A DNA stretch of 7,648 nt, taken from positions 1 through 7,648 of the IMG/VR virus record IMGVR_UViG_2617270973_000013. One strand, 5' to 3'. A program made the position numbers and the translations under genes. Positions 4,474-7,648 of the stretch are shown piece after piece; positions within the stretch are counted from its first letter, which is position 1, and the number at the start of each line of letters is the position of its first letter. The notes under the pieces are model-generated. The model saw only the letters and a program-made list of their open reading frames with translations, was not told the origin of the DNA and searched no databases. The DNA comes from a virus (Duplodnaviria; Heunggongvirae; Uroviricota; Caudoviricetes).

Positions 4474-5238
4474 ATGCATCGTATAGACACGAAAACCGCG
4501 CAGAAGGATAAGTTCGGCGCGGGTAAGAACGGTTTTACCCGTGGTAACCCCCAGACCGGCACACCTGCCACCGATCTGGATGATGACTACTTTGACATGT
4601 TGCAGGAAGAACTCTGCAGCGTGGTGGAGGCATCCGGTGCCAGCCTGGAGAAGGGGCGGCATGACCAGCTGCTTACCGCGCTTCGTGCGCTGCTGTTAAG
4701 CCGCAAGAATCCGTTTGGTGATATCAAATCGGATGGCACGGTGAAAACGGCTCTCGAAAACCTTGGTTTGGGAGAAGGTGCTCCAGCTATTGGCGTTCCG
4801 TTCTTCTGGCCGTCCGCCGCAATGCCAGATACCGTAATCGAAAGCTGGTCCGGCATGGTGTTTTTGAAGTTCAACGGCGCGAAATTCTCTGCCACTGATT
4901 ACCCTGTGCTGGCGAAAGTGTTTCCTTCGCTGGTATTACCTGAAGCCCGCGGTGATTTCATTCGTATCTGGGATGATGGTCGTGGTGTAGATAGTGGACG
5001 TGGATTACTTAGTACGCAGTCTGACCTGATGAAACAATTTACTTTGCAATACTACGGTCCTTCTGCTGGTACTGGAACAAGAACGGTTTTCGCCCTCCAG
5101 AGTAATGCGAACGGCATATATACGAGTGGTATTAGTCAGAATGATGGTAGTGGCACCGCTGCGGCTTTTAATGTACCAGGCGGCACCGAAACACGCCCAC
5201 GTAACATTGCATTCAACTTTTTAGTAAGGGCTAAATAA
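4474..5238 (+). CDS. Tail fibre protein (constant N-terminus Sc, residues 1-~97, fused to variable C-terminus Sv in the present orientation)
   Basis: 254-aa ORF. The N-terminus has a [16 protein letters not shown] motif resembling Mu S / P2 H N-termini (from memory). The C-terminal part ([10 protein letters not shown]...[15 protein letters not shown]) resembles a phage tail-collar / receptor-binding domain. The crossover site sits in-frame at codons 94-101 (LENLGLGE). Stop TAA 5236-5238 overlaps the tfa ATG (TAATG). Confidence 0.8.
4751..4776. repeat. Left crossover site (Hin/Gin-type, 12-2-12): CTCTCGAAAACC-TT-GGTTTGGGAGAA
   Basis: Both half-sites fit the TTnTCnnAAACC pattern recalled for hix/gix/cix sites. 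A perfect 14-bp inverted copy of 4763-4776 occurs at 6608-6621. The site lies inside the stf coding sequence. Confidence 0.8.
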
Positions 5239-5831
5239 TGAAACCTGTTTTTGATAAAAATGGGCTGGCTACAGTGCCGGGTGATATGCGTTGTTTTTAT
5301 TATGATGCAGTAACGTCTGAATATACTGGCTGGTCTGATGAATATATTAATACTGGTGTAAGTATGCCCGCCTGTTCCACTGGTATTGACCCGGGCGAAT
5401 ACATTCCGGGGAAAGTGGCAGTATTTACGGGTAAGGGATGGAGCCATGAAGAAGACCACCGCAATGAGACTGCTTACTCAATCGAAAATGGCGCAGCTGT
5501 TACAGTGGATTATATCGGTGCCATCAAAGACGGTTATGTCACGCTTTCACCGTTAACGCCATACGATAAATGGGATGGTGAGAAATGGGTGACAGATACT
5601 GAGGCACAGCATAGTGCCGCAGTAGACGCGGCAGAAGCACAGCGCCAGTCGCTGATTGATGCTGCAATGGCTTCCATCAGTCTGATTCAACTGAAATTGC
5701 AGGCCGGGCGGAAGCTGACGCAGGCAGAAACAACCCGACTTAACGCCGTGCTGGATTACATTGACGCGGTGACGGCAACAGATACCAGCACCGCGCCGGA
5801 TATCATCTGGCCTGAACAGCCGGAGGCGTAG
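5238..5831 (+). CDS. Tail fibre assembly chaperone (Tfa / Mu U-like)
   Basis: 197-aa ORF coupled to stf. The C-terminus (LDYIDAVTATDTSTAPDIIWPEQP) carries the conserved tail-fibre-assembly motif and an N-terminal FYYD motif. Confidence 0.8.
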   Translation: MKPVFDKNGLATVPGDMRCFYYDAVTSEYTGWSDEYINTGVSMPACSTGIDPGEYIPGKVAVFTGKGWSHEEDHRNETAYSIENGAAVTVDYIGAIKDGYVTLSPLTPYDKWDGEKWVTDTEAQHSAAVDAAEAQRQSLIDAAMASISLIQLKLQAGRKLTQAETTRLNAVLDYIDAVTATDTSTAPDIIWPEQPEA

Positions 5832-6243
5832 GCCATTCAATATCTGGAGCACTGGAAATATCAACCATTTCCAGTGCGTCCAGATAATCAAGCCATGAAT
5901 TATATTGCGCCAGTTCCTCACCTTTCAGACGACCAATAGCAGCCTTTCCTGGCCACTGCTTACTGTTAATATATTCATTAACTCGATTTATGAGTGCCTG
6001 TTTTTTTCGTTCCGCTTCTGACAGTTGTTCTTCATGAGTTAGCGGCGGTACGTCATCCCATGCAGGATAGCCATCATCACCCGCAACTCTCACCTTCCCT
6101 GGAGGTGGGGACAGGTACTTAATAAATATATCCTCATCAACTTCAACTCCATTATGAGGCCATAACCCAGACTCCTTATACTGACTTTCCAGAGTAAATG
6201 GGTAAAACATATTAGTTTTAGCATCGTAAAGATATTTACTCAT
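5803..6243 (-). CDS. Alternative tail fibre assembly chaperone (Tfa' / U'-like) inside the invertible segment
   Basis: Begins MSKYLYDAKTNMFYPF, a typical Tfa N-terminus, and ends with the conserved LDYLDALEMVDISSAPDIEWPTPP motif. Start ATG at 6243-6241 is preceded by AGGAAG and lies 1 nt after the Sv' stop (TAA at 6247-6245). The 24 extra upstream codons in the ORF track (to 6315) overlap the end of Sv' and are judged not to be the real start. Confidence 0.8.
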   Translation of the reverse strand: MSKYLYDAKTNMFYPFTLESQYKESGLWPHNGVEVDEDIFIKYLSPPPGKVRVAGDDGYPAWDDVPPLTHEEQLSEAERKKQALINRVNEYINSKQWPGKAAIGRLKGEELAQYNSWLDYLDALEMVDISSAPDIEWPTPPAVQAR

Positions 6244-6244
6244 T

Positions 6245-6621
6245 TTATCTTCCTGTAGCAAACCAGCGGCAACCAGCGACAGTTGGAACATTGAAGGATG
6301 GATTTCCTTTATCAAGAGATCCCAGGTTCTCTGCTATGACATTTGAGTTAGTCAATTTATAGAATTGCCATACTGACATTTTCCCTGCCACAGGAGCCTG
6401 GTCATGTTCATTAATAGAAATGACGGCTGTCGGAAATGGGATAGGAAAATTAATCAAAACTTCATTTGTTGTGGCCCCAGTTAGCCCCCATTGTTCAATA
6501 TAACCATCCGGGCTTCGCCTCCATCCCGTCGTTGTATCTCCCCCACACTCCCACGCTGACATATCAGGAATTTGGTTTTGCCCGTTACCCACATCCCGTT
6601 TTGCCGCTTCTCCCAAACCAA
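6245..6621 (-). CDS. Alternative tail fibre C-terminal cassette (Sv'), start-less; expressed only as an in-frame fusion to Sc after inversion
   Basis: - strand ORF with no ATG; the track's initial 'M' is a TTG at 6616-6614. Directly stitching the sequence after inversion at the crossover core gives ...ENLGLGE-AAKRDVGNGQ..., in frame with stf codons 1-98. It is immediately followed by tfa' in the stf-tfa arrangement. Confidence 0.75.
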
Positions 6622-6633
6622 CCTTTCAAATAT
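6608..6633. repeat. Right crossover site: TTCTCCCAAACC-AA-CCTTTCAAATAT (inner half canonical, outer half degenerate)
   Basis: Positions 6608-6621 are the exact reverse complement of 4763-4776. The core AA is the complement of the left core TT, as required for inversion. The site ends 59 bp upstream of the invertase ATG. Confidence 0.8.
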
Positions 6634-6692: not shown

Positions 6693-7256
6693 ATGATTTA
6701 CGGGTATGTACGTGTATCAACAAATCATCAGGATACAGAGTTGCAACGTCTTGCACTTGAGTCAGTTGGCTGTGAGCGAATTTATGAAGAATATGCCAGT
6801 GGCAGAACAGCTAATCGCCCTGTGTTAAAGGAATTAATTACGGTGATGAAAAGTGGAGATGAGTTGATTGTCTGGAAGTTAGATCGGATAGGGAGAAATG
6901 TGCTGCATGCGCTATTGATGTTTCAAAATCTGCACGAAAAAGGTGTTAATTTTCGGAGTATTACAGATGGCGTAGACCTGAAAACAGCAAGTGGTCGCTA
7001 TAATTTCCGTAATATTCTTTCTGCTGCGCAGTATGAATCTGATTTGAATAGCGAGCGAACTTTAGCTGGTTTGGCTATTGCCAGATCCAAAGGCCGGATT
7101 GGTGGGCGTAGACCGAAGTTTAGCGACGAGCAGTGGCAACAGATGGGAGCGCTCATAGCGGCAGGGAAATCACGGCGTTATGTTGCACGTATCTATAACG
7201 TTGGGCTATCAACCCTATATAAACGATTTCCTGTTACTGGCATTCAAACGAAATAA
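6693..7256 (+). CDS. Serine recombinase, DNA invertase of the Hin/Gin/Cin/Pin family
   Basis: 187-aa ORF with N-terminal YGYVRVSTNHQDTELQ (catalytic Ser in the YVRVST motif), VWKLDRIGRN, and C-terminal GRIGGRRPK and helix-turn-helix-like region (RRYVARIYNVGLSTLYKR). Strong SD GGAG at 6681-6684, 8 nt before the ATG. It lies directly outside the right crossover site. Confidence 0.9.
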   Translation: MIYGYVRVSTNHQDTELQRLALESVGCERIYEEYASGRTANRPVLKELITVMKSGDELIVWKLDRIGRNVLHALLMFQNLHEKGVNFRSITDGVDLKTASGRYNFRNILSAAQYESDLNSERTLAGLAIARSKGRIGGRRPKFSDEQWQQMGALIAAGKSRRYVARIYNVGLSTLYKRFPVTGIQTK

Positions 7257-7399
7257 TTTAAAAGCAATTTAAAGAGTTATTTGTCTAATGTTGGAAGCCG
7301 CAGCCACGTCGTATGCAAGAACGTGCTGCGGCTGGCTGGCGAACTTTCGATAGTGCGAGTATTGAATGATTTCCAGCCGTTACCGATTTTACGTGTTAA

Positions 7400-7648
7400 T
7401 TAGTGAACAAACCACTCGTCAGCAGATTCCCAGGTATCTTTCAGAGTCTCCTGAACAAAAGTTTTTGCAGAATCCTTATCTGCGGTGCGTGTAACAGAAA
7501 GGCCATCGTTGCTGGTGGCTTTTACGATCACCTCTACATCGTCATAACGTTTACTGATGCGTCGGGTTAATTCTTCCTTTAACGCATCCACAGCACCGGT
7601 TGGCATTTTAGTCATTTTTTCTTTGGCTATGCAGATTTCAATACGCAT
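7400..7648 (-). CDS. DinI-family protein (DNA-damage-inducible protein I-like)
   Basis: 82-aa ORF; the N-terminus MRIEICIAK and C-terminus [17 protein letters not shown] closely resemble E. coli DinI as I recall it. The ATG lies exactly at the window end (7648-7646), so its promoter and any LexA box are outside the window. Confidence 0.7.

Follow-up and report, generated by a model that had tools for sequence, protein, structure and literature searches.

Why would a temperate phage carry, beside the DNA invertase of its tail-fibre switch, a gene of the DinI family? The question arises from a stretch of phage DNA of 7,648 nt (here called the window), whose final 249 bases are an intact 82-codon dinI ORF with the terminal three bases as its start codon. 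The remainder of the window is a baseplate and tail-fibre module of the SfV/Mu type (Table 1). The segment from 4758 to 6626 and the adjacent invertase constitute a host-range switch of the Gin/Pin type. The invertase, which matching genomes annotate as a recombinase family protein, is convergent with dinI, and a gap of 143 bp separates the two genes. A preliminary description of the window had proposed that the last gene encodes a DinI-like protein, that it occupies a cargo slot next to the switch and that prophage proteins of this kind can modulate RecA and the SOS response, and thereby the behaviour of the lysogen. The analysis presented here confirmed that the finding is real and was correctly interpreted; it also confirmed that the gene is ordinary and already known.

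Table 1. Features of the window and of the related chromosomal remnant. Positions refer to the window unless a locus (L number) or genome is named.
Feature	Position	Strand	Description
dinI-like coding sequence	7400..7648	minus	Complete, 82 aa; ATG 7646-7648, stop 7400-7402 (ORF list)
Conserved core of the dinI 3′ UTR	7334..7399	minus	ACGTAAAATCGGTAACGGCTGGAAATCATTCAATACTCGCACTATCGAAAGTTCGCCAGCC; nearly invariant across cassette copies
GC-rich hairpin between convergent dinI and invertase	7296..7333	strandless	Fold -35.5 kcal/mol, z = -4.1
Weak CssrB match	7275-7330	plus	Rfam; terminal hairpin only; CssrB is a Shigella sRNA
Serine DNA invertase (Pin/Gin type)	6693..7256	plus	Pfam Resolvase E 4e-36, HTH_7 E 7e-12
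Inverted repeats, 20 nt, 90% complementary	4758-4777 and 6607-6626		Bound an invertible segment of ~1.87 kb
Alternative pairs of tail-fibre C-terminal and tail-fibre-assembly genes	5238-5831; 5803-6315 and 6245-6616	plus; minus	Inside the invertible segment
ecpE-ykgJ remnant	L011 3001-3152; K-12 MG1655 spacer 304183-304494 (L013)		Downstream of the ecp fimbrial operon

A DinI paralogue at the end of the window

The product of the last ORF matches the Pfam DinI family PF06183 over the complete profile (E 1.1e-19; 70.9 bits, the curated cut-off being 24.2 bits; positions 1-63 of 63), PHROG 189, 'RecA filament binding protein DinI' (E 5.7e-31), and the E. coli DinI entries 1GHH and 7YWA of the PDB (E 3.7e-13, residues 1-81). 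These matches are far beyond chance and bear out the assignment of a DinI-like protein to this interval. A poor alignment to DinI, which would have spoken against the assignment, was not seen: the two proteins align end to end with 46% identity (BLASTP), and the residues that contact RecA are kept. The structural comparison points in the same direction. An AF2 model built from the single sequence, of moderate confidence (pLDDT 77), displays the elements E-H-H-E-E-H-H in a beta-alpha-beta-beta-alpha layout, and its sole significant PDB matches in Foldseek were 1GHH and 7YWA (probability 1.0, TM 0.64-0.68), so that the window protein is predicted to adopt the DinI fold. On the other hand, the score against NCBIfam NF007893, the equivalog of chromosomal DinI, was 73 bits versus a cut-off of 111, which indicates that the protein is a paralogue and not the orthologue of chromosomal DinI. 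The name 'DinI-like family protein' that the identical protein bears in RefSeq accords with this score.

The contacts between DinI and RecA have been described from a cryo-EM structure of the two. Residue F203 of the RecA L2 loop enters a pocket of DinI formed by L13, L21, W71, W77 and F78, the acidic residues E24, E69 and D76 of DinI face K232, R243 and K245 of RecA, and mutation of the DinI contact residues impairs filament stabilisation (Gao et al. 2023, PMC9926225). In the alignments, the pocket corresponds to M15, L23, W73, W79 and F80 of the window protein and the acidic patch to E26, D71 and E78; five of the eight contact residues are identical and the other three are conservative replacements. 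Judged by these residues, the window protein is a putative binder of the RecA filament.

The profile of PHROG 189 is 151 positions long and the window protein aligns only to positions 71-149, which implies that the family includes longer, two-part members. These members favour another reading of the gene, namely that its product belongs to an antirepressor system and inactivates the prophage repressor rather than modulating RecA. Prophage induction is indeed driven by LexA-controlled loci with a DinI module in 186, Fels-2/PSP3 and Gifsy prophages (PMC3121763), and Tum of phage 186 resembles the window gene in being a LexA-controlled prophage gene with a DinI-like module. However, Tum is a protein of 146 aa with an N-terminal antirepressor part, whereas the 82 aa of the window protein are the DinI part alone, and in the Gifsy prophages the antirepressor activity was mapped to a neighbouring gene and not to dinI (PMC3121763). 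Such a neighbour would have to be co-transcribed with dinI, and no minus-strand ORF of at least 20 aa was found between the dinI stop codon and position 7157; instead, the hairpin and then the convergent invertase follow directly. With neither a fused antirepressor domain nor a downstream minus-strand ORF of that size, an antirepressor operon was rejected.

The repressor itself also argues against this reading. The prophage of E. coli CT02 (locus L001), one of the near-identical genomes described below, has a repressor that its record annotates as a LexA-family protein. The C-terminal part of this repressor gave sub-threshold matches to the LexA model (44.7 bits against a threshold of 110.95) and to the UmuD autoproteolytic model (36.7 against 110), and the repressor may be a substrate of RecA-dependent self-cleavage; if it is, an antirepressor is not needed. 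An antirepressor function for the window protein is thus extremely improbable.

Promoter, LexA operators and integrase linkage

The window ends at the dinI start codon, and the upstream DNA was taken from genomes that are 99.7-99.8% identical to it over the stretch from invertase to dinI: E. coli CT02, the enterotoxigenic strain (ETEC) H10407 (L002) and phage SKA5 (L003). Each of the three encodes a tyrosine integrase of 365 aa upstream of dinI and on its strand. The gap between integrase and dinI is 61 bp and reads, in L001 and in the dinI sense, cTTGACActgtttatctatacagttAAAAATaatactgtatacaaacacagtatagaGGGActtttATG. It contains a sigma-70 promoter (TTGACA-18-AAAAAT, scoring 10/12) and two perfect CTGT-N8-ACAG LexA boxes, 16-31 and 44-59 nt 5′ of the dinI ATG. 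One of the boxes is located within the promoter spacer; the other, whose end is 15 nt from the ATG, follows the -10 hexamer and precedes the ribosome-binding site. Extrapolated to the numbering of the window, they would occupy about 7664-7679 and 7692-7707, beyond its end. The preliminary description had suggested a search for a LexA box past position 7648, and this search succeeded, as read in the 99.8% identical genomes: a promoter was found there with a box overlapping it, as expected of a gene in the LexA regulon.

The significance of the two boxes was evaluated in several ways. They are the only perfect LexA boxes in the 25-kb locus. A relaxed pattern with one mismatch was not enriched there (12 sites versus 7.2 expected), and consequently only the two perfect boxes carry weight. 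When the boxes and their flanks were compared with the 20-nt consensus, TACTGTATATATATACAGTA, agreement was found at 16 and 17 positions. Among the viral contigs of IMG/VR, both perfect boxes were present in all 57 that had at least 70 nt of upstream DNA. Other promoter positions vary among these contigs, TTGACA being replaced, for example, by TTGATA or TTAACA, and the boxes are retained even behind different upstream genes. Since the promoter of dinI bears two perfect LexA sites in the near-identical genomes, the gene appears to be an ordinary prophage gene inducible by DNA damage, and the window copy is likely to be under SOS control through boxes situated just outside it. Binding of LexA and induction by damage have been demonstrated only for the Gifsy homologues (PMC8072944, PMC3121763).

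The border between integrase and dinI has a peculiarity of its own. The -35 hexamer of the dinI promoter (L001 13109-13114, just past window position 7648) shares bases with the stop codon of the integrase, and no terminator lies between the two genes in L001. In the absence of a terminator, integrase transcripts may read into dinI, and LexA bound to the operators could block them.

The comparison with known systems places the gene among its relatives. Chromosomal DinI of E. coli (1GHH; 7YWA) resembles the window protein in length (81 versus 82 aa), in its LexA-box promoter and in the predicted fold. In contrast, chromosomal dinI is located between bssS and pyrC, whereas the window gene is a prophage-borne paralogue between integrase and invertase and has two perfect LexA boxes. 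In the Salmonella prophages Gifsy-1, -2 and -3, a LexA box stands 19 bp from the ATG of the dinI homologue, nalidixic acid induces these genes 4.6- to 23-fold, and the Gifsy DinI protein accumulates after treatment with mitomycin C (Mérida-Floriano et al. 2021, PMC8072944; PMC3121763). Gifsy dinI and the window gene have in common a sigma-70 promoter overlapped by a LexA box, the box lying 15-19 bp from the ATG. They differ in what surrounds this promoter: Gifsy dinI lies downstream of replication genes and opens an operon that also includes an antirepressor gene and irsA, whereas the window gene lies beside an integrase and is monocistronic, being followed by the hairpin and a convergent gene. 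Another relative is dinL of phi80, a MsgA-like gene beside pinL, which is likewise a DinI-family gene near a Pin-type invertase and whose TTGACA promoter contains a predicted LexA site. It differs in being found on the other side of the invertase with pseudogene fragments in between.

The same protein is widely distributed. It corresponds to WP_001217553.1 of RefSeq E. coli genomes; at least nine phage records contain a 100% identical protein under the annotation DinI, and 133 phage records match. The identical protein is labelled DinI in phages mEp460, cdtI, SKA5 and phiSTEC1575 and in many Stx-converting phages, and the mEp460 record already annotates the dinI promoter. The backbones that carry the cassette include the SfV-like myovirus SKA5, the lambdoid phages mEp460 and cdtI, and Stx phages; these phages share the order integrase-promoter-dinI, and the backbones differ here only in which gene lies downstream of the cassette. 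The invertase junction of the window recurs in SKA5, which covers 76% of the window at 98% identity. The full cassette was detected in 1408 of 5426 complete E. coli genomes, about a quarter, with up to nine matching places per genome, a count that includes a core-genome remnant of ~150 nt.

The prophage of CT02 is itself defective. A cro-like gene directly adjoins there a baseplate gene that is annotated as partial, without its N-terminus (L001 6480-7260), from which it follows that most early and morphogenesis genes have been deleted. Integrase, dinI, invertase and the end of the tail fibre remain intact in CT02, and ETEC H10407 retains the full tail module.

Which neighbour does the gene travel with? 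A scan of IMG/VR retrieved 80 contigs that encode a 99-100% identical protein, and the statistics of context were drawn from these viral contigs because a scan of genome contigs gave only four loci. The integrase stands directly 5′ of dinI in 52 of 57 contigs, whereas a convergent invertase homologue occurs within 400 bp downstream in 27 of 80; the latter calls (tblastn, E <= 1e-10) had no identity filter and do not necessarily represent the junction of the window itself. Wherever an invertase context had readable upstream DNA, the integrase was directly upstream (21 of 21). The integrase adjoins dusA, which serves a described family of integrases as attachment gene (PMC4482086). The usual partner of the cassette is therefore the integrase and not the invertase. 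The gene is convergent with the invertase as had been described, but it is better regarded as part of an integrase-linked cassette than as the occupant of a 'cargo slot next to the switch'. The parallel that had been drawn with e14 is correct to the extent that in K-12 mcrA follows pinE, with the prophage end after it, but mcrA is co-directional with the invertase gene and not convergent. The limits of the mobile unit were revealed by four loci with a different upstream gene (L006-L009), in which homology extends from exactly the -35 hexamer to just past the hairpin. This defines a unit made up of promoter, two operators, dinI, 3′ region and hairpin.

Very probably, temperate E. coli phages carry a compact, self-contained SOS cassette that has this ORF as its payload. 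The parts of the cassette would be a sigma-70 promoter bearing a pair of LexA operators, then a ribosome-binding site, the 82-aa DinI-family gene, a conserved 3′ UTR and a hairpin. It could be argued instead that dinI is expressed and binds RecA and yet is a neutral passenger, kept by its linkage to the integrase: the host already has a chromosomal dinI, deletion of the Gifsy homologues does not significantly change induction, and copies that are 99-100% identical are possibly just young. Against this, every copy examined has an intact ORF and two perfect LexA boxes while nearby promoter positions vary, the cassette is kept across different phage backbones and behind different upstream genes, and divergent DinI-family genes such as phi80 dinL have the same architecture. 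Neutrality is for these reasons highly improbable, and the reading of the ORF as the payload of an SOS cassette is retained.

The conserved element downstream of dinI

The region between the dinI stop codon and the invertase contains a ~95-nt element (7296-7399) formed by the core and the hairpin. The hairpin is a probable transcription stop. In other contexts its stem is followed by GGTTTTTC, whereas no T-run flanks it on either strand in this one. For lack of a T-run, the consensus scan gives no terminator call, and the 3′ end of the dinI transcript is uncertain. Among 18 variants of the hairpin, three stem pairs show compensatory changes. The core (~60 nt) is less variable than the adjoining hairpin, which exists in several versions that preserve pairing.

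The element is not confined to the cassette and recurs across many lambdoid phages. It follows phi80 dinL with 93% identity (L005 3513-3584), although the dinL protein is only 30% identical to the window protein and the coding DNA can barely be aligned. Elements without dinI are found in lambda, between ea31 and ea47 (L094 2501-2597), and in HK97, where the element comes right behind the annotated sib site (L095 2501-2600). Among the 95 viral contigs that had the core and enough upstream DNA, 48 showed no DinI-like gene upstream of it, and these 48 comprised 36 distinct upstream sequences. Finally, nearly all E. coli, K-12 included, contain an unannotated remnant of ~150 nt between ecpE and ykgJ. 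In the K-12 copy, the decayed 3′ part of the dinI coding sequence retains 52 of 70 positions (74%) and the core 63 of 68 (93%), and the pairing of the hairpin has been kept through compensatory changes. No literature was found on a terminator between ea31 and ea47 of lambda. The element could be a terminator module, a mosaic recombination joint or a functional RNA. It is unlikely that it is a functional non-coding element of lambdoid phages, such as a regulatory RNA, a protein-binding site or a recombination joint, and not an ordinary 3′ UTR.

A rival reading of the cassette holds that selection acts mainly on an RNA product, with the 3′ UTR giving rise to an sRNA or to antisense regulation and the protein being secondary. 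Consistent with it, the core is conserved above the coding sequence in two comparisons, with the K-12 remnant and with phi80 dinL, and it varies less than a hairpin whose own changes are compensated. There is also a precedent in Klebsiella, where the Hfq-dependent sRNA DinR is cut out of the dinI mRNA's 3′ end and represses ftsZ (PMC10907235). The features of a DinR-type RNA, pairing with ftsZ and a Rho-independent terminator with a U-tail, were not found here. The predicted duplex between the core and K-12 ftsZ (-21.5 kcal/mol) is weaker than the mean of the shuffled controls (-24.0 kcal/mol), its pairing with the ftsZ translation start is equalled or bettered by 70% of shuffles, and a DinR-like sRNA acting on ftsZ was accordingly rejected. 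The hairpin in the window lacks the U-tail that Hfq-dependent RNAs normally need, and half of the element copies do not stand behind any dinI gene.

Other candidates for an RNA identity were also rejected. No Rfam family fits the element: a search of the whole window (E <= 1) returned only a partial match to CssrB (22 bits, E 0.3). A full-length CssrB (230 bits) is present 1.1 kb from another dinI cassette (L009 5368-5547); as it sits apart from that dinI copy, the two have only the type of hairpin in common. A second, upstream stem, GGCTGG/CCAGCC, was predicted by RNAalifold but is not supported: the changes observed in it break the stem and none compensates.

One more observation in favour of an RNA comes from O157 Sakai, where EcOnc47, an Hfq cross-link peak on the minus strand at 2896476-2896522, lies antisense in the homologous dinI of prophage Sp15 (Tree et al. 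2014, PMC4104026, Table S2). By homology, its equivalent in the window would be at about 7412-7458 on the plus strand. EcOnc47 is the only one of the O157 EcOnc sRNAs to overlap a homologous dinI; EcOnc42, EcOnc08, EcOnc21 and EcOnc22 were considered as identities for the element and discarded, being located elsewhere in O157. EcOnc47, however, is on the opposite strand and has no northern validation, and it may represent read-through from the convergent operon. A consensus scan for promoters that could drive an antisense RNA detected none in the element and none on the strand equivalent to that of EcOnc47. Taken as a whole, this evidence makes an RNA a very unlikely main product, and the protein remains the preferred payload of the cassette.

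The missing T-run has a further implication, since SOS-induced transcription of dinI could continue past the hairpin and run antisense into the invertase gene. Transcription of the invertase might likewise run antisense into dinI (window 7257-7399). It is conceivable that antisense read-through of the first kind couples DNA damage to the tail-fibre switch.

RecA filaments and the behaviour of lysogens

DinI stabilises RecA filaments and has been reported to inhibit the co-protease functions of RecA at high dosage. If the prophage paralogue acts in the same manner, the cassette would operate as follows. In an undamaged lysogen, LexA would occupy both operators and keep dinI silent. DNA damage would lead to the formation of RecA filaments and to the self-cleavage of LexA, and dinI would be switched on. 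The window protein would then sit in the groove of the RecA filament, like chromosomal DinI, with the L2 loop of RecA inserted into its hydrophobic pocket and its acidic patch opposite K232, R243 and K245 of RecA. Such binding would stabilise the filament and block the site used by UmuD, LexA and repressors of the CI type. The outcome would be an extra dosage of DinI under which SOS outputs, the processing of UmuD among them, change in timing and strength, and which perhaps alters the cleavage of the prophage's own LexA-like repressor. Any effect on the lysogen is inferred, above all in its direction and size, and its sign is not predictable.

The only direct test found in the literature is the deletion of the Gifsy dinI homologues, in which non-polar deletions had no significant effect on induction (Lemire et al. 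2011, PMC3121763). This result tempers the claim that prophage dinI genes shape the behaviour of lysogens.

In conclusion, the window dinI is a widely distributed and already annotated prophage paralogue whose SOS promoter has the textbook double-operator form. The gene adds little to what was known, given that identical DinI proteins are annotated in many phages and present in roughly one in four complete E. coli genomes, and that LexA-regulated prophage dinI genes had already been described; if further study might be worthwhile anywhere, it is only at the conserved element after dinI. For the biology of E. coli, the wider consequence concerns lysogens of several prophages, which, with as many as nine matching places (the remnant included), carry extra SOS-inducible dosage of DinI. 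This dosage could alter the stability of RecA filaments, mutagenesis and the induction threshold of Stx and other prophages.
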